A stretch of DNA of 64,000 nt from a virus: positions 25,551 to 89,550 of IMG/VR virus record IMGVR_UViG_3300010885_049871. One strand, 5' to 3'. This document shows positions 46,591-64,000 of the stretch, in pieces (position 1 is the first letter of the stretch; every line of letters starts with the position of its first letter). The notes beneath the pieces are model-generated. The model saw only the letters and a program-made list of their open reading frames with translations, was not told the origin of the DNA and did no database searches. Both the position numbers and the translations under genes were made by a program.

Positions 46591-46617
46591 GGTGTTCCTT
46601 TGTTGCGTTATGTATAT

Positions 46618-46646: not shown

Positions 46647-46647
46647 A

Positions 46648-47539: not shown

Positions 47540-47542
47540 GCT

Positions 47543-47614
47543 CTAATCCTTGTGATAAAAATTGGGACTGCTGTGACTGAACCGGCAATCCATATCGGTT
47601 ACATGGTATTTCAT
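47543..47614 (-). pseudogene. Truncated duplicate of the 5' end of 46980-47300
   Basis: MKYHVTDMDCRFSHS vs MKYQVTDMDRRFSHS. Confidence 0.7.
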
Positions 47615-47622
47615 AATGACCT

Positions 47623-49495: not shown

Positions 49496-49505
49496 TTGAA
49501 ACTTT

Positions 49506-49916: not shown

Positions 49917-50523
49917 GGAAAAAATCTGGGTTTGATATAAAAAAATCTTGTACCTGCTCAAACTTCTGATGAAATTTTATTTGGAACACTTCTCGTTGAC
50001 CTCGATTGACTACGCCGTGGACAACATCGGTATTGATCAACCAGGTGTCGCCTGGAATGGTTTGATACCTTTGTTGTACCAGACCTGACTCGATAAATGT
50101 AAACGATTCGGTACTGTCTGAAGAAATAATATGATTAATATTGCAACTACCTAGATTTTTTTCTTGATCTGTTTTCCCGTCAATATGTGCATCAATGTTA
50201 TCAAAATGCAATGTGTAAGTGAAGTTGACAAAGTTAAGTTGACTCTTCAACAACTTTTGCCTGATATCTTTACACCACGGAACAGTGGTTTCCAACAACG
50301 GTCCAGTCCAAGTATACCACGGAGAATTATTGGTCAGACTATGATTGACTATCACACTACCGTGGCAACCGATATTAAAAATTTTAGCATCATACGCCGG
50401 CTCCCAAACCATACTGTTGTTAAAATAACCTTGATCTACTTTTGAAAAGAGATACCCAGCGACCGATTGTAATCGACTCCAATCGTGATTTTTTATTAAC
50501 GAACTTGAGATTTGGTATAACAT
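49900..50523 (-). CDS. 2OG-Fe(II)/cupin oxygenase-like protein
   Basis: AHID ... WLINT...HGV.N...R. Confidence 0.55.
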   Translation of the reverse strand: MLYQISSSLIKNHDWSRLQSVAGYLFSKVDQGYFNNSMVWEPAYDAKIFNIGCHGSVIVNHSLTNNSPWYTWTGPLLETTVPWCKDIRQKLLKSQLNFVNFTYTLHFDNIDAHIDGKTDQEKNLGSCNINHIISSDSTESFTFIESGLVQQRYQTIPGDTWLINTDVVHGVVNRGQREVFQIKFHQKFEQVQDFFISNPDFFHVDRH

Positions 50524-50580
50524 TTACAAAGGTAGAGCCAGTTGGGCTGAGTATTTAGTACACTACTCAGCCCATTCAAT

Positions 50581-51666
50581 TTAGGCACTGGCCTGCAAGA
50601 TGTACTTGCCAAAACGCTGGTGGAACTCGTCAAAGTTCTTCAGCTTGGTGGGTTGGAACGGCAGGTTGTATGTGGTCAGGGCAATACGGGCACCCATCAC
50701 AGTCAACTCTGTTTCAAAGTTCTTCATCATGTAGCCTAGGAAGTTGTCGGACATGGCATGGAACTCTTTGTCCGGAATCTTGCGAGCCACTGCATCCTTG
50801 AGCTCGTAGCACATTGAAATTACCAGACTGTACATGGCACTGACTTCTTTGACATCCAGTGTAGTAACCTTGCCGCTCAAGATATCTTCTGGCTTGGGCA
50901 GTCTAGCACTGATCTTGCGGTGCGCCATAAATTTCACAGCAAGACCTTCGCCCACAGTGCCTGCAATCAGGTTGGTCAATGTGTCGGCATCGCCGTCATC
51001 TTCGTCCAACAGCTCGCTTACAAAGGTCCAGGTACGTGGAGTAGCAAAAGCTCGTGAGCTGGACTTGGAGTCAAAGTCATACAGGTCCTGTTTGGCAAAA
51101 CTCAAGTAGCCCACCACATCCTTGTGGATGTTGTTTTGCACCGCCCAGGTCTGGTACGATGCAAAATCCACTTTCATTTCCTGGTGAATGAAACGATTTG
51201 CCAGCGGAGTAGGCATACGATAAGTGACACCTTTGTCGCTTTCCCTGTTGCCTGCAGCCACCAAGACTACATTTTTAGGCAGACGATACTTGCCAATGCG
51301 TCGATTCAGAATAAGTTGATAAGCTGCGGCTTGAACACTAGGTGCGGCCGAATTCAGCTCGTCCAGGAACAGCACCACAATGGGATAGTCCCGGGCCATT
51401 TCTTCGTCAGGCAGTTCAATTGGTGGAGCCCAATCCATCTTGCCCAGTTCTTTGTTGTAGAATGGAATGCCACGAATGTCGGTGGGTTCCATTTGGCCCA
51501 GACGCAGATCGATCATTAGTCCACCAAGTTCTTCGGTAATGCCTTCTACCAATTCGCTTTTGCCAATGCCCGGAGGACCCCACAAGAACAAGGGACGTTT
51601 GGCCCGGAATGCTCGTAGCAAACTTTTACGAGCTTGGGTCGAAGTAACAGTGCGTGAATCTGACAT
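50581..51666 (-). CDS. MoxR/dynein-related AAA+ ATPase
   Basis: GPPGIGKS Walker A; LFLDE Walker B; AAGN; LANRF. Confidence 0.9.
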   Translation of the reverse strand: MSDSRTVTSTQARKSLLRAFRAKRPLFLWGPPGIGKSELVEGITEELGGLMIDLRLGQMEPTDIRGIPFYNKELGKMDWAPPIELPDEEMARDYPIVVLFLDELNSAAPSVQAAAYQLILNRRIGKYRLPKNVVLVAAGNRESDKGVTYRMPTPLANRFIHQEMKVDFASYQTWAVQNNIHKDVVGYLSFAKQDLYDFDSKSSSRAFATPRTWTFVSELLDEDDGDADTLTNLIAGTVGEGLAVKFMAHRKISARLPKPEDILSGKVTTLDVKEVSAMYSLVISMCYELKDAVARKIPDKEFHAMSDNFLGYMMKNFETELTVMGARIALTTYNLPFQPTKLKNFDEFHQRFGKYILQASA

Positions 51667-51695
51667 AGAAATCCTTTTAAGTGGTTAATGCGTTT

Positions 51696-51724
51696 ATTAT
51701 AACAAGAAATGCGTTTGCTGTCAA
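51696..51724 (-). promoter_or_regulatory. Sigma70-type promoter
   Basis: TTGACA-17 nt-TATAAT. Confidence 0.8.
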
Positions 51725-52035
51725 TTGGTGTGAACTTTTTGCAACATCAAAAACAAGTGCTTTTTTTTGCGCGGCAACCATTTTATTGCAGCAGCGCCAC
51801 ATGTTTTGTTCCAAGGACTCCTCATTGTTGTGGCACTTTGGAAGTATCCTTCTTTTGCCAACCCAATCACTGGATCGTAATCAGGTGGTATCCAACTTTC
51901 CGGAAGAGTGCAACTGAACTGTCTGGACGCTTTGATCAGCCGTGCCAACCAATCTGCTCGGGAATGTTTGCAGTCCTTGCACAACAATTCCTTGTTGTAT
52001 TGTTCTTGTCCGAATCCGGGAAAGTTGGATGCCAT
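51721..52035 (-). CDS. Hypothetical Cys-containing protein
   Basis: CKDCKH...C...CG; SD AAGGAG. Confidence 0.6.
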   Translation of the reverse strand: MASNFPGFGQEQYNKELLCKDCKHSRADWLARLIKASRQFSCTLPESWIPPDYDPVIGLAKEGYFQSATTMRSPWNKTCGAAAIKWLPRKKKHLFLMLQKVHTN

Positions 52036-52064
52036 TTGTACTCCTTTTGTTGCGGTATGTGTAT

Positions 52065-52093
52065 ATTATAGCAAAAGAGCAAATATCAGTCAA
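52065..52093 (-). promoter_or_regulatory. Sigma70-type early promoter
   Basis: TTGACT-17 nt-TATAAT; downstream leader resembles that of the 46618 promoter. Confidence 0.75.
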
Positions 52094-52118
52094 CCACTCA
52101 AAAAGTAGTACTAGTGTG

Positions 52119-52730
52119 TTACATGCTAGTTGATATTGCTTTGAACCGTTTGATTGATTCTGATTTATCCCAGAATCCAATTTGCAATGATTTTCGTGGA
52201 CCTGTTGTAAACCCTTCAACCGAGTGTAGAGCCTGGGCGCATAGCAAGTGCCAACGGCCGCGTTTCAACCGTGCTCGGCCAACTTCTTTAAGATTGTCAT
52301 ATGAAGTAGGAGCTGCCCATTTCATATCATATGAATCAGGGCCCGAAGGGTGGGTGTCTCTGATCACTGGGTGATTGCCTTCTTGCCAGTACACAGTGTC
52401 GACTTCTGGCCCGCCCTCGTCCAGCAACCACATCAATGTCCAATTGCGACTTTTATCAGTGTGCGGCAGTGCAACGCCGCCTGGTTCTCCATGGAAGCTA
52501 ACACCAAGATCTGTATAATCCGAACTAATATTTTCTTTAACCCAGTCACAGATTTTTTCACTGACAGGATGCCGCCAATAAGTTGTGTTTGGAATAGACA
52601 CGCCATCTTTAGTAGCAGAACGATCAAACGCTCTGCCCAGTAATTCGTCACGATTGTACGCATCTGCGGCGTCCAGCAATCCGTCGGGTATTGCAGGCAA
52701 GGCAGGATAATAAATTAGTGTTTCAATCAT
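52119..52730 (-). CDS. 2OG-Fe(II) oxygenase-like protein
   Basis: PHTD..R ... LHSV ... R.S. Confidence 0.6.
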   Translation of the reverse strand: MIETLIYYPALPAIPDGLLDAADAYNRDELLGRAFDRSATKDGVSIPNTTYWRHPVSEKICDWVKENISSDYTDLGVSFHGEPGGVALPHTDKSRNWTLMWLLDEGGPEVDTVYWQEGNHPVIRDTHPSGPDSYDMKWAAPTSYDNLKEVGRARLKRGRWHLLCAQALHSVEGFTTGPRKSLQIGFWDKSESIKRFKAISTSM

Positions 52731-52787
52731 AGAAGTTTTCCTTATAAAAATAGGCCGCAACGAACCTATTTATTTTGTGATACAGAA

Positions 52788-53609
52788 TTATTGTCCCAGA
52801 CCCAGATGCACTGTTGATGGTCTTTTGACTAAGAATTCTTTGAAAGCAGCTGATTTTAAAATTTCAGTCAACACAGACACAGTATCTTTGGACACTGTGC
52901 TCATGCCCCACAAATCTATAGTCACATAGTGATTGTTGTACTTGCCCGGGGCAAACTGTCCCAGGAATGGCAAACCATAATGATTCTTTGCTGTGGATGC
53001 TGCAATACATTTACCGCCAGCACTGACAACAGCTTCGGCACCATTGGCAATGAAGATCATATCAACATCAGTTCCTGCAATCACAGCAGCCCTTGCAGCA
53101 GCATTGGCTTCGTATGGAATAGTACGAATATTCAGTTTTGGGGAACTATTAGCCACAAGATTGGTCCACGGCGGCAGTGTAACAGGTCCAGACGTTATGG
53201 CCACTTTATAAGTTTGTGTGCCAGTAAGATCTGCCAGGGTGATATTTGTTTTTGCAGGTGAAGTACACAGATAGTGTGTTGTGCTGGCCAGATTAGTGAC
53301 AAATTTAAATGCAGGATAATCTTTCTGTGCCGGGCAAAGACCTGCTGCATCTTGCATATCTCCACCACTCATGACAACAAATGCATTTTCTTGAGTTTTT
53401 GCTCGAATCAATGCATCGTGGCACGATTTAAAAAATTCTTGTTTGACTGTGTGGCCTTTGTTTCGTAGCCCTTCAATTACCGGCATCGACCAGACTTCGG
53501 TACCACCGCCAGGTGGATAATAGTAGTTGAAGTGATAGGTGTCGGCCATTGCGGCAGCGGATGCAACAGCAAATGTAATTGCCGTAAAAAACTTAGAAAA
53601 TTTACTCAT
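52788..53609 (-). CDS. TctC/Bug-like periplasmic substrate-binding protein
   Basis: Signal peptide; YPPGGGT; IPY......A..AG.DVD; adjacent to a TctA-like gene. Confidence 0.65.
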   Translation of the reverse strand: MSKFSKFFTAITFAVASAAAMADTYHFNYYYPPGGGTEVWSMPVIEGLRNKGHTVKQEFFKSCHDALIRAKTQENAFVVMSGGDMQDAAGLCPAQKDYPAFKFVTNLASTTHYLCTSPAKTNITLADLTGTQTYKVAITSGPVTLPPWTNLVANSSPKLNIRTIPYEANAAARAAVIAGTDVDMIFIANGAEAVVSAGGKCIAASTAKNHYGLPFLGQFAPGKYNNHYVTIDLWGMSTVSKDTVSVLTEILKSAAFKEFLVKRPSTVHLGLGQ

Positions 53610-53618
53610 AATTTCTCC

Positions 53619-54944
53619 TTAAAAGTTGAGTAATAAAAATCGGAAAATTTCCGATGATACTGACATTGACAAAAGCATGCCAAATATCAGTGCAACGCGA
53701 ACAGAAAACTCTTTTACAAAAAAACCAACCAACACGGAGACCGCAGTCAACGACAGGTACAGGCCAAGTTGTTGGTTGGTTATTCCTTCTGAAACACACA
53801 CCGCTATGCTCAGTGCAATCAGGACGGGATAGATTATCTTGCTCAAGCGAATGTAGAGAGAAATCATATGTTGATAAAACATTCCGGCAACGAACCAATT
53901 GACTACATTGACCAGTACCAGTATCAAAATCAATGGGCCAGCCAGTGCTGCTATCAAATTGAAACTGTTGTTGATTCCAAATCCGCTGCGTTCAGCCAGC
54001 GCCATGATCACTGCTTCGGATGGAATAATGGGCAATGCTAGAAATATCAATGGTATCAACACAGTGATGGCAGCTGAATTGTTGGCAGCTTCTGCAGAAA
54101 TTACTATTTGTTGATTGTTGTTGTTGATCTTTTTTTCAATCACTGCTGCGACCATTGATGATACCGATGTTCCTATCATGGGTACCAAGCCCATCACTGC
54201 ACCTATCACGGATCCACGCAGGGATGACAACACCGGCGGGAATTTTAACAATGTTGCCAAACGGGTCCGCATACCAAACTCATTTGAATTGATGTTGACA
54301 TTCAACAATCTGTGCCTTGCGTGATGCACAATCTCTGGCAACATTAGAAATCCAATGAACACAGGCACAAACGGAATGCCACCTGGCAGAAAATCTGCAG
54401 CAGATAAAAAGTGCTCACGCCTCAAACTGTCGTACCCAATGTGTCCAATCACTAACCCTGCAATTGCAAATGCCAGCGCCAGGATCTTTTGTTTGCTGGC
54501 CGCACTGATCAACAAAATAAGCACAGTTAACAATACCAATCTTGGAGTGTTGTTGATAAAGTACTTCATAAAATCAATATACTGTGTGGCTGCATAGAAA
54601 ATCACAACACCCACAACGGATGCTATCAGACTGGATGTGGCAGTGCCGCTTAGTAATTCTGCGCCACGACCTTGCCTAAATTCGTCATGGCCATACTGCA
54701 CTGCCGGCACACTGGTGATTTCTCCGGCTATGCCATACACAATGGATGGTATGCTGCTGTAATACTGTACTGAAGACATCATCACTGAATAAAATACAAA
54801 CAAATCCACCACTGGTAATCCAAGCAAAACAGGATACAAGATCATTATCCCAGATGCAGGTCCTACTCCGGGGAATACACCAATCACAATGCCGCTGACT
54901 ATGCCAAGCAGTATGATTGGTAACAGATACAGTAACTCTGTCAT
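53619..54944 (-). CDS. tctA: Tripartite tricarboxylate transporter permease TctA-like
   Basis: G...G..PG.G repeats; AEAANNSA..IP; many TM helices. Confidence 0.75.
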   Translation of the reverse strand: MTELLYLLPIILLGIVSGIVIGVFPGVGPASGIMILYPVLLGLPVVDLFVFYSVMMSSVQYYSSIPSIVYGIAGEITSVPAVQYGHDEFRQGRGAELLSGTATSSLIASVVGVVIFYAATQYIDFMKYFINNTPRLVLLTVLILLISAASKQKILALAFAIAGLVIGHIGYDSLRREHFLSAADFLPGGIPFVPVFIGFLMLPEIVHHARHRLLNVNINSNEFGMRTRLATLLKFPPVLSSLRGSVIGAVMGLVPMIGTSVSSMVAAVIEKKINNNNQQIVISAEAANNSAAITVLIPLIFLALPIIPSEAVIMALAERSGFGINNSFNLIAALAGPLILILVLVNVVNWFVAGMFYQHMISLYIRLSKIIYPVLIALSIAVCVSEGITNQQLGLYLSLTAVSVLVGFFVKEFSVRVALIFGMLLSMSVSSEIFRFLLLNF

Positions 54945-56077
54945 TTGATTTTGTACTCCTGTGAACTGACCGCATAGTATGATTGCACTGATTGCTGGTC
55001 TGAAGACAACAGTCCCATCCGCACCATGTATGATATCAGTGTTTGGTCTGTTTGTAAAATATGCCAGCCGTTGATGTATTTTTTTACAGCAGAAGATTGA
55101 CGCTGCAATCCTGACAGCAATGGCAAGCTGGTAGAATTTTTTGATAGTTGGTACAACACTGAAGCTGAAATTTCTTTTGAAAAATCAATTGATTTCACTA
55201 TACTGTCATGCCCGGCATTGATTTGTTTTTCCATTTGACTAATTCCCGGTATTACCTCCGGATCGCGACCTTGTACTGCACACTTTAAATAGTAATTTTC
55301 TGGTTTTTCTAATTCTGTCAGCGATGTATTGGTCCTTAGACAATAGTTCAACATCATATGACACTGTTTGGCATGCAGTTCTGGCATGTCAGGAGATATA
55401 AAAAAGAACTCTAGGTCGCTGCGATTTAGTGCGCCAGCAAATAAGCGGTCGGAAAATCCAAAGTAATAGCCGTCTTTGCGCTGAACCAACTGGGGCTTTT
55501 CAAAGCCCACAATTGTGCAGTAGTTATAATTGTTGTAGGATTGATCAAAATTGTCTTGATGCAGCACAGGCCGGCAGTATTTGACCAATTGATGTCTGAG
55601 ATTTTTATCATCGTTTACCATGTAATCTTCTGACGAAAGTTGTTTTTCGTATCCAAGAATATCGTCGTGAGTATGTACTGATTTAATATTGATTTTTGTA
55701 GTCTTGTCTGGATGATTTTCCAACAACCAGGTCACTGCTTTTTCTGGTATTAAATTGTCAACGCCGGATCGTGCGTAACAAATGTAAATCTCATCTAGGT
55801 GTATGTTGTTGCGTAGAAAGGTGTTGTATATGGTGATTGAGTCAGTGCCACCACTGAATGCCAGTGTAAGTTTATCATATCTGTTTCTCAATTGATGTGC
55901 TCGTCTGTCACACAGTGTTTGAAAACTTTCCGCTGGTTCTATGGTCCAGTCAACCGTGGCAAACTCACGGTCGTAGAACTCAAATTTTGGAAATGTATGA
56001 GGATCGTGTATGGACCCGTGCAGGAATGCCGTGAACGGATTGTCAAATTTTATTCCATTGATATTGTAATAAACCAT
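54941..56077 (-). CDS. PP-loop (adenine nucleotide alpha hydrolase-like) protein
   Basis: LAFSGGTDS motif. Confidence 0.6.
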   Translation of the reverse strand: MVYYNINGIKFDNPFTAFLHGSIHDPHTFPKFEFYDREFATVDWTIEPAESFQTLCDRRAHQLRNRYDKLTLAFSGGTDSITIYNTFLRNNIHLDEIYICYARSGVDNLIPEKAVTWLLENHPDKTTKINIKSVHTHDDILGYEKQLSSEDYMVNDDKNLRHQLVKYCRPVLHQDNFDQSYNNYNYCTIVGFEKPQLVQRKDGYYFGFSDRLFAGALNRSDLEFFFISPDMPELHAKQCHMMLNYCLRTNTSLTELEKPENYYLKCAVQGRDPEVIPGISQMEKQINAGHDSIVKSIDFSKEISASVLYQLSKNSTSLPLLSGLQRQSSAVKKYINGWHILQTDQTLISYMVRMGLLSSDQQSVQSYYAVSSQEYKIK

Positions 56078-56145
56078 TGGCAGTTTTACTGTATTCGGGG
56101 CGATTGCTTGTAGAAGAACTCTACTTACGGTAGGCGTTCTGTTAT

Positions 56146-56175
56146 ATTATAACAGTAAAGACATTGCTATGTCAA
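56146..56175 (-). promoter_or_regulatory. Sigma70-type promoter
   Basis: TTGACA-18 nt-TATAAT upstream of the PP-loop/tctA/tctC cassette. Confidence 0.65.
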
Positions 56176-56251
56176 GCGTCAATTGGTGATCCGACGTCAA
56201 CAGATTGTTGGCGTTGCTAATGTTATTTATATCAACCGCATACGAATGGCC

Positions 56252-56278
56252 AAAAAAAAGGCTACCGAAGTAGCCTTT
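56252..56278 (-). terminator. Intrinsic terminator with cUUCGg loop
   Basis: AAAGGCTAC-TTCG-GTAGCCTTTTTTTT. Confidence 0.85.
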
Positions 56279-56296
56279 GTGTCCAATCGTGTTGGA

Positions 56297-57136
56297 TTAG
56301 AACGAGTGTGATACACGAACACGATATGTGTCGGTATTGTTGGCAGCAGTTGTGTTGCTGCTGACTTGTGCCACGGCCAATTGAACTGAAGTTCTCTTGC
56401 TCAATGCATACTCAGCGCCAACCTCTTTGGCAGTGCCATTACCATCAGAATATGCAGCGCCCACAGTCACAGCACCTACAGTGTAGGAAGCACCTACCAC
56501 ATAGGAGTCGGCAACATTGCGTTCATTGCGACTGACACCTGCACCAACTGTGATGCCTTTTACAACAACTTTGGCACTGGCGCGAACCCGCTCAGTTGTT
56601 TGGTTGTAATCAACAGCACTGCTGACTGGGCCAACTGTGTAAGTTGCACCAAACACATTTTTGTTTGTGCCGGTGTTGTTGATGGCTCTAGTGTTGCTGA
56701 CTTTGAATGCCAGTCCCGACACTGTGGGTGTTGTGTAGCTGACAGATTGCACATTGGACTTGGCGCCCAACACAACTCCGTCTTGACCTATAACCGGTGC
56801 ATCACCTAGCCCAAGACCAATGATGCCATTGGCAGATTCAATTTGACCAACTTTGACTGAACCAACCGGAGTTGCAACATCAACATACATGTCGTTACCT
56901 TCGGCAGCAGTGCCGTTTCCGCCTGGCTGAATTTCTGCATAGGCCTTGACAGTTATGCCATTGCCAATGGATTCTGTAGCAGTAAAGTTGATATTGCTGG
57001 TGTCCATTGGAGACATTGTGGTTACGGTGTTGTCTGACCGCTTGATGTCGTATGCAAGTTTTCCGCCAATTTTAAACTGGGCGTGAGCTGTACCTAATGC
57101 AGCCAAAATTGCTACTGCGACTAATGCTTTTTTCAT
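56297..57136 (-). CDS. Gram-negative outer-membrane porin (betaproteobacterial type)
   Basis: MKKAL..A signal peptide; SYTTP..SG; GA.Y.LSKRT; C-terminal H.F. Confidence 0.85.
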   Translation of the reverse strand: MKKALVAVAILAALGTAHAQFKIGGKLAYDIKRSDNTVTTMSPMDTSNINFTATESIGNGITVKAYAEIQPGGNGTAAEGNDMYVDVATPVGSVKVGQIESANGIIGLGLGDAPVIGQDGVVLGAKSNVQSVSYTTPTVSGLAFKVSNTRAINNTGTNKNVFGATYTVGPVSSAVDYNQTTERVRASAKVVVKGITVGAGVSRNERNVADSYVVGASYTVGAVTVGAAYSDGNGTAKEVGAEYALSKRTSVQLAVAQVSSNTTAANNTDTYRVRVSHSF

Positions 57137-57341
57137 TGTGTATTTCCTTTGTAAGTGTGAAGGGGCAGAATTGCCACTGGAGTATTTATTTGCGGTTGCA
57201 ACAATAACTTAAAAAACAGGCAGTTTATATTAGTTTTCTGGAATATTACCGATCTTTGTCAACACAATCATGGGCTGCCGCGTTAAATATACATGTACAG
57301 AATAGTTTTGTACATAAGTTTCTAACCTTAAGGAAAATACC

Positions 57342-57623
57342 ATGAAACAACTTATTGCTATTATCGCTACACTCGCTACCGCCACTGCATTTGCCCAGGC
57401 TCCTGCTGCTGCACCTGCTGCTGCAAAACCGGCTGCTCCTGCTGCTGCGCCTGCTGCTCCGGCCGCCGCTGCTCCTGCTGCCAAGAAAGAAGAAGCCAAA
57501 CCTGCTGCTAAGAAAGAAGAAGCCAAGAAGCCAGCTGCTAAGAAAGAAGAAGCCAAGCCTGCCAAAAGTGCACCGGCTGTCGACGCAAAAGCAGCAACTC
57601 CAGCTGCACCAGCAAGCAAGTAA
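57342..57623 (+). CDS. Secreted Ala/Lys/Pro-rich low-complexity protein
   Basis: Signal peptide ending AFA; PAAKKEEAK-type unit x3; SD AAGGA. Confidence 0.75.
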   Translation: MKQLIAIIATLATATAFAQAPAAAPAAAKPAAPAAAPAAPAAAAPAAKKEEAKPAAKKEEAKKPAAKKEEAKPAKSAPAVDAKAATPAAPASK

Positions 57624-57806
57624 TCTAGAAGTAGACAACGACGATGACATCTGGTGCGGAGTCGATGATCTAACTTTTCACCGTGGTCGTGATCGTCCTG
57701 TTTTAACAGATGATGCGGAACTGAGTCCTTATGTTTGCAATAGACTAGCACTGGCAAGACATCTTGCACTGGCTCGATATCGTGAAACACACATGACTTA
57801 GATTCA

Positions 57807-57834
57807 CAATAGGCAGGCAACTGCCTATTGTTTT
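57807..57834 (+). terminator. Intrinsic terminator with GCAA loop
   Basis: CAATAGGCAG-GCAA-CTGCCTATTG-TTTT. Confidence 0.75.
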
Positions 57835-57864
57835 GACCGCACTCCAATACTGTACAAATAAGTC

Positions 57865-57892
57865 AAAAAAATAGGACCCGAAGGTCCTATTT
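57865..57892 (-). terminator. Intrinsic terminator (cUUCGg) ending the tmRNA transcript
   Basis: AAATAGGACC-TTCG-GGTCCTATTTTTT. Confidence 0.85.
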
Positions 57893-58218
57893 ACTATTTT
57901 CTGTTTCTAAGCATAGTTGCTCAAAGCAGTGTTTAGACTGCTAAGGAGTGGCGTTGTGCTGTACGAGCAGAGAACTTGACGTTCTTACCTGAAACAGTTA
58001 CTTCACCTGTATTTGCGTTTGCATTTACGGTTTTTGTGTCTACGGCCGAAATACTCCGACCCTACGGCTTCTACATTGCCGGACTGTCCATTTCCGTACT
58101 CTTGACCCAATCGATAGCCTGGTCATCCCCACCTAAATATACCTTATACACTTAGGTGGAGATGGTGGGAGTCGAACCCACGTCTTGAATCCTTTTCTGT
58201 CTACTTCATACAGTCTTA
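57893..58218 (-). ncRNA. ssrA: Circularly permuted (two-piece) tmRNA
   Basis: Acceptor piece ...GTGGGTTCGACTCCCAC-CATCTCC-A-CC (ends 58155) precedes GGGGATG (58130); G3:U70 pair; tag ORF 58022-57933 ANANTGEVTVSGKNVKFSARTAQRHSLAV*; outer ends approximate. Confidence 0.88.
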
Positions 58219-58231
58219 ACTTGTATTTATT

Positions 58232-58894
58232 TTACTTCTGCAGATACTGTTTTATTCTTGCTACAGTAGCATCTTTGTCCACATCAACAGTGCTGTCAAA
58301 CTTGCAGTATACATCAAGCAACTGGCTAAGATTTTCAACCAAATCATACTTGTTCACTGACATGGGCTTGGGCCACGGTGTGTCAAACTGTTGAGTTGGT
58401 AAGTTCACAGCATTGTAAAATGCCTGTGCATTTTGTGTATGCACATGAAACAACAGAGGTATCATGTCACTGTGAGTTTGCTGTTGCCATTGAGATACGG
58501 CACAATCTCTGTTGTGGTTTGCTTCCAATAGACCAAGGAACTGACCTGGGTCAATGGTAAATTTTGTATTTTGATATTTTTCTCGGTATTCTGCCAGGTC
58601 TTGGTCACTGCCCATATGATGTTTGTTTGTGTGTTCAGCAACAAAATGGCTCAGTGCTGAATCAAAATAATTTCTTCTACACCAAAGCCTGGTGAACTCA
58701 GGCGGTGCTGTGACAAACACTTCAAACTGATGTGTGTGTTGAATTGTCAATGACCAATCGGGAATAGCATTACCGGCGCTCCAACTTACATATGAAGACG
58801 TTTCTTCAAGAGATCTTGGTACAGCAGCGTCTAGCCATAGTGCATAAATGGTAGAACCGGTTCTACCATTTATTCCGACAATAAATTTTTGCAT
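58232..58894 (-). CDS. P-loop sulfotransferase-like protein (Stf0-like)
   Basis: GRTGST; RRN.F..ALS...A. Confidence 0.55.
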   Translation of the reverse strand: MQKFIVGINGRTGSTIYALWLDAAVPRSLEETSSYVSWSAGNAIPDWSLTIQHTHQFEVFVTAPPEFTRLWCRRNYFDSALSHFVAEHTNKHHMGSDQDLAEYREKYQNTKFTIDPGQFLGLLEANHNRDCAVSQWQQQTHSDMIPLLFHVHTQNAQAFYNAVNLPTQQFDTPWPKPMSVNKYDLVENLSQLLDVYCKFDSTVDVDKDATVARIKQYLQK

Positions 58895-58931
58895 AGTGAT
58901 GTTGATTTTGCTTCAACACAATATTTATCAC

Positions 58932-59005
58932 TGGTCTCAGTAGCAGGAATCGAACCTACGCTCCTTGGTCCCAAACCAAGAGTGATACCATTTCACCATA
59001 CTGAG
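58932..59005 (-). tRNA. tRNA-Pro(UGG)
   Basis: Cloverleaf; anticodon arm CTTGG-TTTGGGA-CCAAG; CCA encoded. Confidence 0.92.
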
Positions 59006-59014
59006 AAAATCAAC

Positions 59015-59088
59015 TGGTACCTCGTGACAGAATCGAACTGCCGTCTGCGCTGTGTAAAAACGCGGCCCTACCATTAGACGAACGAGGC
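59015..59088 (-). tRNA. tRNA-Val(UAC)
   Basis: GCGTT-TTTACAC-AGCGC; CCA encoded. Confidence 0.9.
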
Positions 59089-59096
59089 AAAAAATA

Positions 59097-59172
59097 TGGA
59101 GCGGCTAACCGGGTTCGAACCGGTGACGTCTTGCTTGGCAAGCAAGTACTCTACCAACTGAGCTACAGCCGC
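59097..59172 (-). tRNA. tRNA-Gly(GCC)
   Basis: CTTGC-TTGCCAA-GCAAG; U73-CCA. Confidence 0.95.
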
Positions 59173-59182
59173 ATATATTAAC

Positions 59183-59258
59183 TGGTACCAAGAGACGGGA
59201 TCGAACCGCCCACACACGAATTTTCAATCCGCTGCTCTACCAACTGAGCTATCTTGGT
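59183..59258 (-). tRNA. tRNA-Phe(GAA)
   Basis: GCGGA-TTGAAAA-TTCGT; CCA. Confidence 0.93.
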
Positions 59259-59259
59259 G

Positions 59260-59334
59260 TGGTGGAAGTAAGTAGATTCGAACTACTGACCCGCAGCGTA
59301 TGAAGCTGCTGCACTACCGCTGTGCTATACTTCC
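59260..59334 (-). tRNA. tRNA-CAU (elongator Met or Ile2)
   Basis: GCAGC-TTCATAC-GCTGC; paired 1-72, so not initiator; CCA. Confidence 0.88.
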
Positions 59335-59344
59335 AGAACTGCTG

Positions 59345-59421
59345 TGGGGTATAGTATGGAATTCGAATCCATGCTGACGGAATCACAATCCGTAGTGCTG
59401 ACCGCTGACACTAACTACACC
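59345..59421 (-). tRNA. tRNA-His(GUG)
   Basis: ACGGA-TTGTGAT-TCCGT; G-1:C73; CCA. Confidence 0.92.
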
Positions 59422-59493
59422 ATAGAAAAACACACTGTACGCAACCTCTTATGCGCTGGGGTGACCAGAATTTAATCCCAATGTGTTTATCTA

Positions 59494-59569
59494 TGGTAGG
59501 ACCACCCGGACTCGAACCGGGAATTGGCAGATTAAAAGTCTGCTGTGATAACCATTTCACTATGATCCC
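59494..59569 (-). tRNA. tRNA-Lys(UUU)
   Basis: GCAGA-CTTTTAA-TCTGC; CCA. Confidence 0.94.
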
Positions 59570-59631
59570 ATTGTCAGTCGTGAATTGTCTTTCAAGTGCC
59601 AATCCAGACCGACATGGGATCTGGGTTGACA

Positions 59632-59655
59632 CTACATTTTAGCTGTTTGCTTCAT
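59632..59655 (-). CDS. Mini-ORF MKQTAKM (putative leader peptide)
   Basis: SD AGAGGT, ATG 59655, TAG 59632; between a promoter and tRNA-Lys. Confidence 0.45.
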   Translation of the reverse strand: MKQTAKM

Positions 59656-59681
59656 ATAGTACCTCTTTGGTTTAAGTTTTG

Positions 59682-59710
59682 ATTGTACAACAATTTCAGA
59701 ATGTTGTCAA
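59682..59710 (-). promoter_or_regulatory. Sigma70-type promoter for the Lys-Pro tRNA block
   Basis: TTGACA-17 nt-TACAAT. Confidence 0.75.
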
Positions 59711-59720
59711 CTGTTTTTTT

Positions 59721-59794
59721 TGGTGCCCCACGACAGAATCGAACTGCCATCACAGGATTACAAAACCAGTGTACTGCCATTGTACTAGTAGGGC
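59721..59794 (-). tRNA. tRNA-Thr(UGU)
   Basis: Loop TTTGTAA; anticodon stem has two U-U mismatches; CCA. Confidence 0.85.
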
Positions 59795-59801
59795 TAAAAA
59801 T

Positions 59802-59877
59802 TGGCTCCTCAGGTACGGATCGAACGTACGACATCTTCATTAACAGTGAAGCGCAACTACCGCTGTGCTACTGAGGA
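59802..59877 (-). tRNA. tRNA-Asn(GUU)
   Basis: CTTCA-CTGTTAA-TGAAG; G73-CCA. Confidence 0.94.
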
Positions 59878-59885
59878 ATAAAACT

Positions 59886-59973
59886 TGGCGGAATGACTCG
59901 GACTCGAACCGAGAAGCCGTTTAACCGACCGACGGCTTAGCAAGCCGCTCCAATACCATTATGGGACCATTCC
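59886..59973 (-). tRNA. tRNA-Ser(GCU)
   Basis: GCGGC-TTGCTAA-GCCGT; long variable arm; G73-CCA. Confidence 0.93.
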
Positions 59974-59989
59974 AAAAACTAACATTGCT

Positions 59990-60018
59990 ATTATATAACA
60001 GTTGACCAACAGTGTCAA
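59990..60018 (-). promoter_or_regulatory. Consensus sigma70 promoter for the Ser-Asn-Thr tRNAs
   Basis: TTGACA-17 nt-TATAAT. Confidence 0.85.
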
Positions 60019-61157
60019 CTGATATTCGCCTGCGGAAACACCGCTAGGTAATTGGTGCCTCTAATGTCGTCCAGTAGGTCAATGTAGTCTTTAAACTTGC
60101 GATACAACTCAGCATCATAACCAGCAGAGTCAATCATGCCTACAATCAATGATCTCTGGCTGTGGTCAATGTCAGTGCTGGACTCTGCCCAGGACTTAAA
60201 CGGCACCAGATGATCTACCGGCACTGAGTGCAAGCTCAAATGCGGATATCCAGATATTGTGGTAATATGCACACGCAGGCTCTGCAGTTTTGCAAATGCC
60301 ATCAGGTCCGGCAGCGCATACGCACTGGTGTGTTGCAGCACATGATTGACGGTTAGTCTTGCCTGTGGCAATTGTTGTTTGAGCAGTTGAATATTTGATT
60401 CAATATCACTCCACCGACTTGGATGTCTGACATAATCATTCATTGCACCGGTACCTTCTAGGCTGATACAGATCTCTATGTCTTTAAATTTTTGCAATGT
60501 AGTCAACAGTTTATTACCAACTTCGGTTAGATTAGTGTTAAAGCTCACAACAACATCGTTGCATCGAGGCATCAACATTTGTAAGAAGTTGACCACTTCA
60601 GGAATGATAAACGGTTCACCACCTGTGATGTTTACTCTACGAACATCGGTTGTCAGCACAGTCTGTGCAAACTGTTTGAATTCTTCATCTTTCCAGTAGT
60701 ACGGCATGTCGCCCACTGCGTTCTGAGCACCAATTTTTACAAAACGATCGTGATATTTGACACGTTCTGCGGCAATACTAGAACTTGATGCTGGGCCACA
60801 CATGATGCATTTGAGATTGCAAAAATTGCCTAGTCTTAGTTCTAAATCATAGATTGGATTGTCTGCACTGACGGCTGTGACATCCGAAGGATACCATTTA
60901 TTTTGGTGTTGTCTTAGACTAGTCCAGCCATGTTGTTCTTCTCTATAGCATTTAACACATCCTGCATGCGGTCGGCCAGCAGCCGCATCTGCTTGCATCT
61001 TTGTAGGTATATCTGCTAGATACTGATCAAACTTGGTGTAATGATGTTTAGTTTTTATTTTAAAATCTTGGTCATACTGACAACATGGCTCAATTGTGCC
61101 GTTGGCATTTACACAAATACTATGATAAGCGGCCTGACAGCTGGTCGAAGTTGACAT
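60015..61157 (-). CDS. N-terminal twitch-domain radical SAM protein inside the tRNA array
   Basis: CQAAY..PCC..CVKC; core CNLKCIMC; GGEP. Confidence 0.85.
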   Translation of the reverse strand: MSTSTSCQAAYHSICVNANGTIEPCCQYDQDFKIKTKHHYTKFDQYLADIPTKMQADAAAGRPHAGCVKCYREEQHGWTSLRQHQNKWYPSDVTAVSADNPIYDLELRLGNFCNLKCIMCGPASSSSIAAERVKYHDRFVKIGAQNAVGDMPYYWKDEEFKQFAQTVLTTDVRRVNITGGEPFIIPEVVNFLQMLMPRCNDVVVSFNTNLTEVGNKLLTTLQKFKDIEICISLEGTGAMNDYVRHPSRWSDIESNIQLLKQQLPQARLTVNHVLQHTSAYALPDLMAFAKLQSLRVHITTISGYPHLSLHSVPVDHLVPFKSWAESSTDIDHSQRSLIVGMIDSAGYDAELYRKFKDYIDLLDDIRGTNYLAVFPQANIS

Positions 61158-61216
61158 CTACGATTTCTTTCAATTTATAAAAATATTTAGCAATTGACAC
61201 AGTGTTAACATATATT

Positions 61217-61290
61217 TGGTACCATGTACAGGTAACGATCCTGTGTCTATCGGTTATCAGCCGATTGCTCTACCTTTGAGCTAACGTGGT
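61217..61290 (-). tRNA. tRNA-Ile(GAU)
   Basis: ATCGG-CTGATAA-CCGAT; atypical T-loop ATCGTTA; CCA. Confidence 0.85.
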
Positions 61291-61297
61291 ATTTGTA

Positions 61298-61371
61298 TGG
61301 CAGAGGGTACTGGGATCGAACCAGTGATGACAGAGTCAAAGTCTGTAGTGTTACCGCTACACTAACCCCCA
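61298..61371 (-). tRNA. tRNA-Gln(UUG)
   Basis: ACAGA-CTTTGAC-TCTGT; G73-CCA. Confidence 0.92.
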
Positions 61372-61379
61372 ATAAAACT

Positions 61380-61453
61380 TGGTGGAGGATGAGAGAATCG
61401 AACTCTCATAAACAGCTTGCAAAGCTGCCGTAATCCCATTATACTAATCCCCC
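61380..61453 (-). tRNA. tRNA-Ala(UGC)
   Basis: GCAGC-TTTGCAA-GCTGT; G3:U70; CCA. Confidence 0.93.
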
Positions 61454-61460
61454 GTTATCT

Positions 61461-61537
61461 TGGCCGGCCCTGAGAGACTCGAACTCCCAACCTCTGGTTT
61501 CGAAGACCAGCACTCTAATCCATTGAGTTAAGGACCG
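61461..61537 (-). tRNA. tRNA-Arg(UCG)
   Basis: CTGGT-CTTCGAA-ACCAG; CCA. Confidence 0.92.
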
Positions 61538-61542
61538 ATATT

Positions 61543-61616
61543 TGGCGTACCCACTAGGACTCGAACCTAGACTGACGGTTTTGGAGACCGCAATGCTGCC
61601 ATTACACTATGGATAC
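61543..61616 (-). tRNA. tRNA-Trp(CCA)
   Basis: GCGGT-CTCCAAA-ACCGT; G73-CCA. Confidence 0.92.
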
Positions 61617-61661
61617 ATTCTAAAAAAATTCAATACAAAATTGCCAATAAGTACTGTCGAC

Positions 61662-62354
61662 ATGAAAAACTTTTTCTTATATCAACTTGCTCATCAAAGA
61701 CATCCAGAATATCAGCCATTGACTTCGGTGTTGCCGATACAAAATGTTAAGAATTCAATGGCAAAAAGTTTAAAAGTGCTATCAAAAGTTTCATACAACA
61801 ATGACCATGCCTTCCAGGCGTTTTCGGTCAATAGCAAATACTTTGAATTAATGGCTGAAAATCCAAAAACATTCAATGTAGATACGATACCATTGGCAAC
61901 ACTGAGACAATGGGTGTACGATCCAGAATTTGATGAATTATTAACAAAAAATTCTCATATGGAAGTAAACTTGCAAGGTGCAATTCTAAAGTTCGTTGTG
62001 TCTGAATTTTTAAACGCAATTGGAGTAGATACAACCCAAGTGTCTACCAGTCGAGCAAAATTAAACATACAAGAACCCGGTCAAATGTTTCCTTTGCACT
62101 TTGACCGAGTTCGGCACAATGATTACGATAATGCTGAAAAACAACTGGTATCCGACCCGTCACATGATAGATTTTTAATTTTTTTAGAAGATCAGCAACC
62201 GGGACAAATGTTCCAATTTGATATGTGCAATATAACCTGGTCTCAAGGAGACGTGTATACTTGGAATGCTCGAGACACCATGCATGCATCAGCAAATGCA
62301 GGATATTGGACTAGAAGACTTCTGTTGATTGATGTTGGTAAAACATCATGCTGA
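61662..62354 (+). CDS. 2OG-Fe(II) oxygenase-like protein
   Basis: Q.PGQMFPLHFD ... MHASAN.G..R; start at MKNFF. Confidence 0.65.
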   Translation: MKNFFLYQLAHQRHPEYQPLTSVLPIQNVKNSMAKSLKVLSKVSYNNDHAFQAFSVNSKYFELMAENPKTFNVDTIPLATLRQWVYDPEFDELLTKNSHMEVNLQGAILKFVVSEFLNAIGVDTTQVSTSRAKLNIQEPGQMFPLHFDRVRHNDYDNAEKQLVSDPSHDRFLIFLEDQQPGQMFQFDMCNITWSQGDVYTWNARDTMHASANAGYWTRRLLLIDVGKTSC

Positions 62355-62404
62355 ATTTGTCAACATTCTAATGCACATCGAGTTTGCCCCTAAATAAATA
62401 CTGG

Positions 62405-63013
62405 ATGAAACTAGAATTTACTCCAGTGACTGATATTTTGTATACCGTCAATTATGATGACAAAACAATATTGGATCAAATATTTTTACAATTGCCCACA
62501 GCACCATGGCTATTTTGGCCGCCAGCAGATGGAAATGCAAAAAATGCTATAGATATTATTGACGTCGCTGACACCCACCTGTTGTCAGCAGAAATGCAAA
62601 CTTTTGAATCTTGGGTACACAGTGAAGATTTTAAACAACAGATATTGAACTTGTTGTTTGCAAACTCAGAATTTATGGATATATGGGGACAACCACAGCG
62701 TGAACTGTTTGATGCAGTGACCCGAGTCAGTGCTGGATGGGTTCGTACTCCGCCCAACTGTGCCAATTATTCCTGGCATCTTGATTGTCGTAGCCAAGTG
62801 GCACTTGGCATGATTTATTTTATACAAGGCGATGATCCCGGACAAAGTACCTACTTTGATACTGTTCCCAACACAACACATCAACGTATCCCTACCGGAT
62901 TGGGTCGGGGTTGGTTTGTAATAAACCATCACCGCGCCCGGCATTGTGCAATGAATGATACTGATCAACACAGACACTGTTTAAAATTTACACTAAACTT
63001 GAACGTTTTATAA
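62405..63013 (+). CDS. 2OG-Fe(II) oxygenase-like protein
   Basis: WHLD ... RHCAMN...R; similar to 26790-27338; ATAAATA 4 nt before the ATG. Confidence 0.6.
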   Translation: MKLEFTPVTDILYTVNYDDKTILDQIFLQLPTAPWLFWPPADGNAKNAIDIIDVADTHLLSAEMQTFESWVHSEDFKQQILNLLFANSEFMDIWGQPQRELFDAVTRVSAGWVRTPPNCANYSWHLDCRSQVALGMIYFIQGDDPGQSTYFDTVPNTTHQRIPTGLGRGWFVINHHRARHCAMNDTDQHRHCLKFTLNLNVL

Positions 63014-63092
63014 TCTTCTGCACCTGCATCTATACATTTTAAAACACGCCATCTGCGGTATCGCAACCCAGGCCAGCTTGGTATGTTTTAGA

Positions 63093-63235
63093 ATGCAGTG
63101 TGTTGCCACACCACATGACGGGGTTGATACCCCGCCCAGGAGTCTTACTAGAATGTTGTCGCCACTCGTTCATGTGTCCTGTCCGCCCGTTTGCCTGTTT
63201 TATTGTGCTGGCCGAATCCTCGTTACTCATTGCAC
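63093..63235 (-). ncRNA. Candidate ~140-nt structured ncRNA of unknown family
   Basis: CACATGA/TCATGTG stem, GCGGGG/CCCCGT hairpin, GTGTG-GCAA-CACAC hairpin, possible CAGGA/TCCTG pseudoknot. Confidence 0.5.
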
Positions 63236-63237
63236 AT

Positions 63238-63274
63238 AAAGAAAAACCCTGGAGTTTTTAGTTCCAGGGTCTTT
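63238..63274 (-). terminator. Intrinsic terminator (attenuator 3:4 hairpin)
   Basis: GACCCTGGA-ACTAAAAAC-TCCAGGGT-TTTTCTTT. Confidence 0.8.
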
Positions 63275-63295
63275 GAAGTTTGTCGGTTACTGCTG

Positions 63296-63427
63296 TTATG
63301 CGCAACTGCTGCCTTCTCGGACCCTGTGATTTGCTGTAATATTCTTGCCACGGCCAAAACCGCGTGACCACGGCTGAGCCAGGGTCGTTACGCGATGCAT
63401 GGGGCTAAAAATATTGGTGTTCATCAT
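63296..63427 (-). CDS. 43-aa putative leader peptide
   Basis: MMNTNIFSPMHRVTTLAQPWSRGFGRGKNITANHRVREGSSCA*; directly after a promoter; contains both alternative pairing segments. Confidence 0.55.
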   Translation of the reverse strand: MMNTNIFSPMHRVTTLAQPWSRGFGRGKNITANHRVREGSSCA

Positions 63428-63434
63428 AAGTCCT

Positions 63435-63463
63435 ATTGTATGTTATTTATCATTCAGTGTCAA
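63435..63463 (-). promoter_or_regulatory. Sigma70 promoter with embedded ATAAATA late-type motif
   Basis: TTGACA-17 nt-TACAAT; ATAAATA at 63450-63444. Confidence 0.8.
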
Positions 63464-63481
63464 CCACTGACGATTTGTTAT

Positions 63482-63555
63482 TGGTTGCGGGTGACAGATT
63501 TGAACTGCCGATGCTCCTGGCTTATGAGACCGGAGTGGTGACCACCCTACCCGCG
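63482..63555 (-). tRNA. Atypical initiator-like tRNA-Met(CAU) with minimal D-arm
   Basis: C1:A72 mismatch; loop CTCATAA; D-arm GGTG-GT-CACC; CCA. Confidence 0.7.
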
Positions 63556-63597
63556 AAATTATTTATCTATATCAAACTGCACTGCTGAGATTTAACC

Positions 63598-63689
63598 TGG
63601 TACCAGCGGAGGGAATTGAACCCTCTCAAGAACGCTAATCTGGCGCTAAAAGGTCTATAAGGCCTCTCTGACTTCCAAGTCTCGCTGGC
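63598..63689 (-). tRNA. Atypical tRNA with UAU anticodon, short D-arm and long variable arm
   Basis: GCCAGCG/CGCTGGT-A-CCA; loop CTTATAG; V-arm AGCGC/GCGTT; T-arm GAGGG-TTCAATT-CCCTC. Confidence 0.7.
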
Positions 63690-63697
63690 ATATTGAA

Positions 63698-63917
63698 TTT
63701 GTTAGAGTAGCAGCACCACGTTATTGCTGCCATTCACCCGAATTAACAAGCTCGAGCGGGAGTCGGTAAGTTACTTGGGATACCGGTCCAGTTTAGTCGC
63801 CTCAATGGACCCCTGCAGTTCCCCGCAGGGTGGGTGTCGAACCCATGACCTTCTACTGTTTTGGTCCTTCGAAGAAACCTAGACAGCGTGACTTTCTCTT
63901 GCTAACACTCTAACAAA
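63698..63917 (-). ncRNA. Candidate ~220-nt multibranch ncRNA
   Basis: Closing stem TTTGTTAGAGT/ACTCTAACAAA; six or more internal hairpins including T-arm-like TGGGTTCGACACCCA. Confidence 0.6.
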
Positions 63918-64000
63918 ACTAATCAAGAGCTTGTAGACCAAACTACAATTTACCGGTTTCTAGACGAACTCTTAAACTTGGTGGTTAGTGCTGTTGCGAC

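Follow-up and report, generated by a model that had tools for sequence, protein, structure and literature searches.

The stretch of DNA analysed here, hereafter the window, comprises 64,000 nt of a virus (positions 25,551 to 89,550 of IMG/VR record IMGVR_UViG_3300010885_049871) and carries on its minus strand a circularly permuted, two-piece transfer-messenger RNA (tmRNA) gene with a 29-residue tag reading frame. Scanning of the window with ARAGORN returned a permuted tmRNA on the minus strand at 57842-58246, and a search of the whole window against 4227 Rfam families matched RF04321 (tmRNA_permuted) at 57933-58215, over model positions 1-213 of 213, with a score of 91.8 bits (gathering score 47; E 2.1e-16) that far exceeds a chance match. 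These results confirm that the phage DNA carries a circularly permuted tmRNA gene that is complete and sound in structure. A preliminary description, made from the sequence alone, had proposed such a gene; reading and indexing the sequence located all the minus-strand elements that it listed, and ARAGORN arrived unaided at the same gene and, letter for letter, at the same tag, ANANTGEVTVSGKNVKFSARTAQRHSLAV. The gene and its immediate upstream region are organized as follows:

58234-58232: stop codon of the upstream open reading frame (ORF), whose end is overlapped by the AATAAATA box
58224..58231, minus: AATAAATA box, just upstream of the acceptor piece, overlapping the end of the upstream ORF and containing ATAAATA (58230-58224)
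58155..58222, minus: acceptor piece (5' extension with P2 strands, T arm, acceptor 3' strand, discriminator A and CC)
58215-58210, minus: 5' strand of the P2 outer helix, GACTGT, pairing with ACAGTC at 58087-58082
58191-58185, minus: 5' strand of the P2 inner helix, GATTCAA, pairing with TTGGGTC at 58110-58104
58181-58165, minus: T arm GTGGG-TTCGACT-CCCAC, with a canonical T loop
58164-58158, minus: 3' strand of the acceptor stem, CATCTCC, followed by discriminator A (58157) and CC (58156-58155)
58154-58131, minus: intervening segment of 24 nt, forming with ACC an 11-bp hairpin stacked on the acceptor stem
57863..58130, minus: coding piece, with predicted ends (GGGGATG, P2 strands, two hairpins, tag frame, two 3' hairpins, terminator)
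58130-58124, minus: 5' strand of the acceptor stem, GGGGATG, forming 7 bp with CATCTCC
58110-58104, minus: 3' strand of the P2 inner helix, TTGGGTC
58087-58082, minus: 3' strand of the P2 outer helix, ACAGTC
58044..58081, minus: two hairpins at the pseudoknot 1 position
58081-58078 with 58068-58065, minus: first of these hairpins, CGGC/GCCG
58061-58057 with 58048-58044, minus: second of these hairpins, GGTCG/CGGCC
57933..58022, minus: tag frame, with resume codon GCA (58022-58020) after TAAAT, 29 codons (58022-57936) encoding ANANTGEVTVSGKNVKFSARTAQRHSLAV and stop codon TAA (57935-57933)
57925..57942, minus: helix 5, AGCAG/CTGCT, by inspection, with the stop codon inside its 8-nt loop
57909..57922, minus: 3' hairpin GAGCA-ACTA-TGCTT, by inspection
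57862..57892, minus: intrinsic terminator, a 10-bp stem with UUCG loop (57892-57869) and a T run to 57862

The start of the acceptor piece at 58222 marks the onset of conservation with the related locus L008, not a mapped 5' end. As the preliminary description had it, GGGGATG and CATCTCC complete a 7-bp acceptor stem with a G3:U70 pair, the two pieces also pair through GATTCAA/TTGGGTC and GACTGT/ACAGTC, and the resume context TAAAT-GCA is found at 58022. The encoded 3' end reads ACC only and the next base is T, so that the terminal A of CCA is not encoded and would need post-transcriptional addition. The expected UUCG terminator is present just beyond the interval previously given for the gene (57893-58230); it aligns with the terminator of the RF01850 model, and terminator-like sites number two (both strands of one palindrome) against 0.4 expected.

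The predicted structure was assessed on the 5' 212 nt of the window gene and of 59 relatives sharing its intervening segment (60 sequences, 56 of them distinct), counting the pairs of the structure read off the window sequence. Standard pairs occupy 94.3% of 2368 cells, versus 35-44% after a shift of the 3' partners by 1-3 columns; changes on both sides are seen at 19 of 45 pairs, and the covariation score of 0.233 (0.096 shuffled) was reached by none of 500 shuffles. The compensatory changes are carried by the two P2 helices, the T arm and acceptor pair 5:68. Both sides change at 4 of 6 pairs in the P2 outer helix (89.5% of cells paired), at 5 of 7 in the inner helix (98%) and at 4 of 5 in the T arm (100%), while pair 5:68 is A5:U68 in 28 of the 56 distinct sequences and G5:C68 in the other 28. 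The G3:U70 pair is present in 56/56 distinct sequences, at a position fixed by the search pattern, and the 18-bp hairpin formed by the acceptor stem and the intervening segment is nearly invariant by construction, since these loci were picked by that very sequence.

At the pseudoknot 1 site we read two hairpins. All four pairs of the first hairpin change on both sides, with 60.7% of cells paired, a value that partly reflects misalignment; the second (58061-58044) is missing from 30 of the 56 distinct relatives, and where it occurs (26 distinct sequences) 96.9% of cells are paired. Running RNAalifold on the 3' part of 46 poorly aligned sequences returned no structure, an outcome attributable to the poor alignment, and helix 5 and the hairpin that follows it therefore rest on inspection. 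By inspection, helix 5 changes from AGCAG/CTGCT in the window to GGCAG/CTGCC in locus L032, a compensatory change, and relatives carry GAGGTA-GTTA-TACCTT where the window has its 3' hairpin.

Many relatives (L156, L171, L173, L202, L211, L212, L216, L236, L249, L259 and L260) present a T arm CCGGG-GGCAGTG-CCCGG, located ~55-35 nt before the intervening segment, with the T loop GGCAGUG, not UUCGACU, and a D-loop analogue GACACAGGATCGA in place of GACCAGGCTATCGA. ARAGORN makes no call on these relatives, and a tmRNA lacking the canonical T loop would be unusual.

Among the older, lineage-specific Rfam models, the best match to the window gene was RF01850 (beta_tmRNA), the model of betaproteobacterial two-piece tmRNAs, which aligned under relaxed thresholds over positions 1-331 of 331 (E 2.3e-20) with a score of 68.3 bits that falls under its gathering score of 84, a shortfall due to the large tag insertion and the extra hairpin before the tag. 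The acceptor-arm pattern of the window occurs in 18 viral loci, 17 of which are called permuted tmRNA by ARAGORN. All 18 match RF01850, 14 of them above the gathering score at 90-160 bits; L008, L019 and L015 score below 84, and L016 matches only as a lower-ranked clan overlap. On an unrooted tree of the tRNA-like domain (120 columns; 237 distinct rows, comprising 93 bacterial, 113 viral, 30 metagenomic and 1 cultured phage), bacterial beta-type genes form one clade of 93 bacterial and 5 viral rows with a Shimodaira-Hasegawa-like approximate likelihood ratio test (SH-aLRT) support of 97, and the tmRNA sequence of the window, for which the identical L008 row stands in, is placed in a 67-row group that lacks bacterial members (SH-aLRT 82). 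Given its RF01850 score, we call the gene beta-like and do not file it in the curated RF01850 family. Judging from these comparisons, the gene is homologous to the known two-piece lineage and belongs to a radiation beside the bacterial beta clade, seen on viral and metagenomic DNA only.

A looser beta-type pattern identified at least 120 bacterial loci, almost all of them Rhodocyclaceae-like among the matches listed, which include Azonexus/Dechloromonas, Thauera, Propionivibrio, Accumulibacter, Azoarcus and relatives. Inference of the phage host from the tmRNA type was considered and rejected, because Acinetobacter phage BUCT628 has a beta-type gene although the bacterial carriers of such genes, among the matches listed, are almost all Rhodocyclaceae-like.

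Several lines of evidence bear on the tag frame. In the Rfam alignment the resume codon and the last five codons coincide with consensus positions and the extra codons are inserted in between; short-tag relatives have their resume codon in the same GTAAATGCAAAC context as the window gene. Compared with L032, the window gene presents two separate 3-nt indels and four synonymous changes, with the frame kept, and in L165 a serine codon of the tag core has switched from TCN to AGT. Over the core VTVSGK[NSG][VI]KFSAR[TS], the nonsynonymous-to-synonymous polymorphism ratio (pN/pS), computed on only nine unique related variants and 15 codons, is 0.29 in frame versus 1.20 and 0.81 in the other frames. 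Together, the frame, indel, pN/pS, resume-context and Rfam evidence indicates that the 29-residue frame ending in LAV, read as originally proposed, is real and in all likelihood under peptide-level selection; the ~17 extra residues in its middle likewise appear to be selected as peptide. Close variants of the window tag are ANANTGEVTVSGKSVKFSARSVKAESFAV, ANASKGEVTVSGKNIKFSARSVKRQLLAV and ANVNKTVTVSGKNVKFSARTAKEALAV, and distant variants with little nucleotide identity, such as ANANTKGEVAINARGVKIARRAAVLA, AKASTNGSFKFSGKGVKLASARREAVLA and AKKVNATKTASGSFKVSGRGLKITSARREAVLA, follow the same pattern, ..V..SG[KR]G.K...AR.., which is kept in L085, L204, L206, L192 and L078. Other long-tag families, ANADTFEFGALNFTGNTVRGAANEGRFALAA for example, are found on the same tRNA-like backbones, which also carry ordinary 10-residue tags. 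Tag type is out of step with tRNA-like-domain clades, which points to an exchange of modules between tag types and backbones.

ARAGORN made 204 calls, corresponding to 134 unique viral or metagenomic genes including that of the window. Tag lengths among these 134 genes are bimodal, with 94 tags of 8-15 amino acids (aa), one of 19 aa and 39 of 22-33 aa, although the loci were picked by sequence patterns and these proportions are thus not population estimates. Median net charge is +2 in long tags and -1 in short ones, and an -AV ending occurs in 10/39 long and 0/94 short tags. Among the bacterial beta-type matches listed, ARAGORN called 108 of 120 loci, and 101 of these 108 have a 10-aa tag of the form ANDE[RQH]FA[LIV]AA, the other seven being apparent miscalls. 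A length of 10 aa is also the most frequent one according to the tmRNA database paper (PMC11915505). The tag had been described as unusually long, and it is so against the bacterial 10 aa, but long tags are common in phage two-piece genes (39/134). In this sample, the long-tag family is seen only on phage or metagenomic DNA.

The intervening segment was searched as a 35-nt stretch, CTCCACC...GGGG with the segment included and two free positions. It was found at 50 viral and 79 metagenome loci (129; the two sets overlap partly, with the same contigs in both) and in 0/185,579 species genomes. The segment that would be removed on processing is letter-identical, save for the two free positions, in the window and in L140-L268, and this constant segment (58131-58154) may be a candidate processing signal, recombination joint or internal promoter. 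It contains a TATATT located five bases before the 5' end at GGGG. Two contigs, one of 537 nt (record 8 of the lake metatranscriptome run X3) and one of 963 nt (record 2 of run X1, a run that is probably DNA), join 58115 to 58177 through 175 other letters that replace the 61 of the window (58116-58176), which points to a relative with a much longer stretch over the T arm, the segment and the acceptor 5' strand.

The window is part of virus record G000, which has 89,550 bp and is 26% complete. Its positions 44001-64000 are collinear with two related genomes, G001 (340,172 bp, 98% complete) and G003 (106,918 bp), at 98% identity in the tmRNA and some tRNAs and 83-91% in protein genes, and the carrier would on this basis be an uncultured giant lake phage of ~340 kb. 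Six differences separate the window tmRNA from L008 and L019 within the gene, and no similarity to these loci is left before the AAATAAATA box or past the terminator. Conservation with these loci is hence confined to the gene, which indicates that the unit under selection is the RNA gene itself.

Three lake-water metatranscriptome runs, belonging to three studies, contain contigs that agree with the coding piece at 90-99%. One such contig, of 138 nt, covers 57953-58089 and differs only by a substitution at 58005 (GGT to GGC), which is synonymous. The RNA runs share at most 0.18 of the stretch's words, and the contig matches support transcription weakly, as DNA can occur in RNA libraries. Contig ends at 58115 were considered as an RNA end and rejected, because the contigs run into adapter sequence. 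The AATAAATA box ends 4 nt before the conserved start, and 43 of 77 unique sequences lying upstream of related genes contain [TA]ATAAATA; TTGAC[AT]-N16-18-TAnnnT, which the window lacks, also occurs in 26 of the 77. The box is a candidate -10 or late-type promoter element, and may resemble the T4 late promoter motif.

Concerning partner proteins, the absence of smpB from the window, noted in the preliminary description, extends to the whole 89,550-bp record and to the 98%-complete G001, and SmpB was detected in none of G000, G001, G002 and G003. Neither SspB nor Lon was found in the searched phage genomes, the near-complete G001 included. This relative encodes ClpX (474.9 bits versus an equivalog cut-off of 370.75, in a 406-aa frame), ClpS (74.5 bits) 700 bp beyond ClpX, a ClpA-like protein of 763 aa (783.7 bits, under the cut-off of 993) and two ClpP paralogues (263 and 96 bits), its Clp genes being located at 49671-51827 and 304228-306330 of G001:C1 and at 7457-8032 and 9674-10264 of L393. 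By collinearity, G000 spans only ~106-193 kb of G001 coordinates and misses the Clp regions, so the absence of Clp genes from G000 means nothing.

We consider it very probable that the locus is a functional beta-type two-piece tmRNA gene of a ~340-kb lake phage, operating along the following steps. A single precursor would most likely be transcribed and ended at the UUCG-loop terminator, and would fold into a structure in which the 11-bp hairpin derived from the intervening 24 nt prolongs the 7-bp acceptor stem. Host RNase P would cut before GGGG, the 3' end would be trimmed to ...ACC and the CCA-adding enzyme would supply the missing A. Removal of the segment would leave an acceptor piece of ~65 nt and a coding piece of ~270 nt, held together by the acceptor stem and the two P2 helices. 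Host alanyl-tRNA synthetase (AlaRS) would charge the RNA via G3:U70, and EF-Tu together with SmpB, assumed to come from the host given that the phage lineage lacks smpB, would bring it to stalled ribosomes. Translation would resume at GCA, append ANANTGEVTVSGKNVKFSARTAQRHSLAV and stop at the UAA in the helix 5 loop. The hydrophobic C-terminus of the tag, which is like a ClpX/ClpA degron, would most likely still direct the products to Clp proteolysis, whether the enzymes are those of the host or the ClpX, ClpA-like protein and ClpP that the phage lineage itself encodes.

Several observations weigh against this reading. The RF01850 score lies under the gathering score, and of the P2 helices in the Rfam model the middle one is unformed in the window. 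The pN/pS comparison covers few variants and codons, and some codons of the tag core do not vary at the third position either, where RNA-level constraint or low divergence is inseparable from peptide selection. The RNA evidence consists of assembled contigs, those of the four runs compared showing neither ends nor strand and carrying no information on uncovered parts, and a sigma-70 scan gave no match directly upstream of the tmRNA, the nearest lying at 58281-58254. The Clp genes were found in a relative and not in the 89.5-kb record; moreover, G002 (316 kb), which has the short tag ANDELYALAA, carries the same Clp set, so that the Clp genes do not explain the long tag specifically. They fit a phage-run proteolysis scheme without singling out the long tag.

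Alternatively, the RNA could be a decoy that soaks up host SmpB, EF-Tu or AlaRS and blocks host trans-translation, the tag frame being irrelevant. Such a role was proposed for the RNA of mycobacteriophage DS6A, which consists of a tRNA-like domain only, and a molecule resembling this domain inhibits tmRNA, perhaps by titrating SmpB (PMC4131195, PMC11915505); an RNA from a phage lineage without smpB must compete for the SmpB of its host. A decoy, however, needs no conserved tag frame, resume context, helix 5 loop stop or peptide pattern, all of which are seen here, and DS6A-type RNAs lack the coding part that the window gene keeps whole; we therefore regard this explanation as improbable. Still less credit can be given to the gene being a passenger, that is, a fragment of host DNA, or the remains of an attachment site acquired through imprecise excision, with no role in the phage. 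Genes for tmRNA are common integration sites, and fragments of them occur in prophages (PMC9004378, PMC4131195), but the gene of the window is complete from upstream box to terminator and 98% conserved between phages with differing flanks, its intervening segment occurs at the 129 viral or metagenome loci and in none of the species genomes, and its row falls in the bacteria-free group of 67. A similarly slight probability attaches to the permutation having arisen separately in phages, as a fourth or later origin beyond the alpha, beta and cyanobacterial ones, which the preliminary description had entertained. The RF01850 score under the gathering score and the position of the phage sequences outside the bacterial beta clade (SH-aLRT 97) would agree with it, yet a tree that is unrooted and has 120 columns makes that position uninformative on the point. 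The end-to-end alignment with RF01850 in the same piece order (E 2.3e-20) speaks against an independent permutation, as do the continuous series of phage relatives matching this model (18/18, 14 of them at 90-160 bits) and an intervening segment that resembles the beta consensus in form.

The fate of tagged products leaves more room for an alternative. The long tag might not be mainly a Clp degron, its mostly basic middle directing products instead to a phage adaptor, another protease, aggregation or sequestration. The middle segment is conserved at peptide level across distant variants, long tags are basic and end in -AV in 10/39 cases (0/94 in short tags), bacterial beta-type tags are 10 aa long in 101/108 cases among the matches listed, and in Mollicutes a longer tag is tied to Lon (PMC9382460). 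Nevertheless, the C-terminal residues remain small and hydrophobic (LAV, FAV, VLA, LAA), like those of Clp degrons, and an AAV-ending variant is still degraded by ClpXP, if more slowly (PMC9382460). Besides, the Clp genes are the same in the short-tag relative, no adaptor candidate emerged, and a strand-turn-strand-like reading of the middle comes from inspection. On balance, a fate other than Clp proteolysis seems unlikely, though clearly less so than the alternatives above, and tagging for Clp proteolysis by a functional beta-type tmRNA remains the preferred reading.

A further proposal, which we put forward as speculative and rather doubtful, is that the long tags of this phage-only radiation (~22-33 residues with a conserved core) do what a 10-residue tag cannot, and open a private tagging-degradation pathway. 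If so, products would be handed to the phage ClpX, ClpA-like protein, ClpS, two ClpP or an adaptor, and only SmpB and AlaRS would be borrowed from the host. Tags of tmRNA are usually seen as short, interchangeable degrons, and here, in a large set of tmRNAs from uncultured freshwater phages, they are ~3x the bacterial length and have a conserved peptide core. The occurrence of long and 10-residue tags on the same backbones offers a natural comparison for tag content beyond the C-terminal ClpX signal, and is relevant to the question of why large phages devote genes to ribosome rescue and to Clp proteases of their own. The picture of how tmRNA works is unchanged.

Genes for tmRNA have been reported in 402 of 18,146 phage genomes, and 53 of the 133 unique phage structures are two-piece, 50 of those 53 coming from marine or aquatic phages (PMC9004378). 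The preliminary description was thus correct in recognizing a phage two-piece tmRNA but overstated its novelty: such molecules are already published. Huge phages carry both tmRNAs and SmpB (PMC7162821), and phage tmRNAs are listed in PMC4131195 and PMC11915505, the latter counting 79 phage sequences. A literature search, with most subscription journals outside its coverage, turned up no description of long conserved tags in two-piece tmRNAs of phages; the available text of PMC9004378 and three of its supplementary files hold no long conserved tag, the files holding no tag sequences, and no phage rows were found in the available supplementary file of PMC11915505.

The window gene shares with beta two-piece tmRNAs (RF01850) the order of acceptor piece, short intervening hairpin and coding piece, the incomplete ACC end, the resume context and ANx tag start, the stop codon in the helix 5 loop and the terminator hairpin. 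It differs from them in its 29-aa tag ending in LAV (10 aa in bacteria, among the matches listed), in the extra hairpin before the tag and in an intervening segment seen in 0/185,579 species genomes. A blastn search of the gene against 50,697 phage records gave one partial match, which covers 22% of the query at 76.5% identity and lies in Acinetobacter phage BUCT628 (MZ593728, Obolenskvirus). The BUCT628 gene is likewise beta-type (RF01850 94.3 bits, RF04321 123.9 bits) and has the GGGGATG/CATCTCC stem, but belongs to a 45-kb phage and has another intervening segment and a 13-aa tag ending in LAA, ANDNVFGAKTLAA. This permuted tmRNA is unannotated and lies at 2972-3305 of L002 (~39424-39757 of MZ593728.1), in an 850-bp gap between annotated genes.

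Mollicutes tmRNA is of the one-piece form, and differs from the gene described here in tag sequence and in the organisms that carry it. The Mollicutes tags are likewise far longer than the usual 10-11 residues and end in a C-terminal motif other than LAA; they are read by Lon and go with the loss of ClpXP (PMC9382460), whereas the phage lineage has Clp genes and no Lon. The same source reports that ClpX reads a C-terminal LAA, that degradation by ClpXP is slower for an AAV variant and that ClpS lowers the action of ClpA on ssrA tags (PMC9382460). Complete permuted ssrA genes are also found in the aquatic Methylophilales phage Melnitz and Pelagibacter phage Mosig, where, as here, no matching host tmRNA type is needed (PMC9004378). 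The Melnitz gene is reported to be alphaproteobacterial in type and accompanied by a glutamine riboswitch (PMC9004378), whereas that of the window is beta-like, and no riboswitch family of Rfam was matched in the window tmRNA region.

A megablast search of window positions 50000-64000 against the 50,697 phage records gave no match. ARAGORN identified 16 tRNA genes just upstream on the same strand (58932-63555), in an array whose two blocks are separated by a radical SAM gene (60015-61157, minus strand; Pfam 36.9 bits, three PHROG radical-SAM families). In the 340-kb relative, tRNA-Pro directly precedes the tmRNA (315-388 of L008); in the window, the same place is occupied by a 220-aa ORF (58232-58894) with no family match, and tRNA-Pro is located at 58932-59005. 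This looks like the insertion or deletion of one gene between close relatives upstream of the tmRNA. On the other side, the tmRNA is followed by a 205-aa ORF of no clear family and, past it, by genes for a Gram-negative porin (Porin_4, 92.5 bits; 56297-57136, minus strand) and a TctA tricarboxylate transporter subunit (166.3 bits; 53619-54944, minus strand). Both are conserved at ~91% in the 340-kb relative, which identifies them as phage genes and not assembly chimeras. Lastly, stretches of 25-60 nt at ~44400-44900 and 46600-46650 match many places of G001, at 332-336 kb, with 80-100% identity, and constitute a dispersed short repeat of the phage genome.

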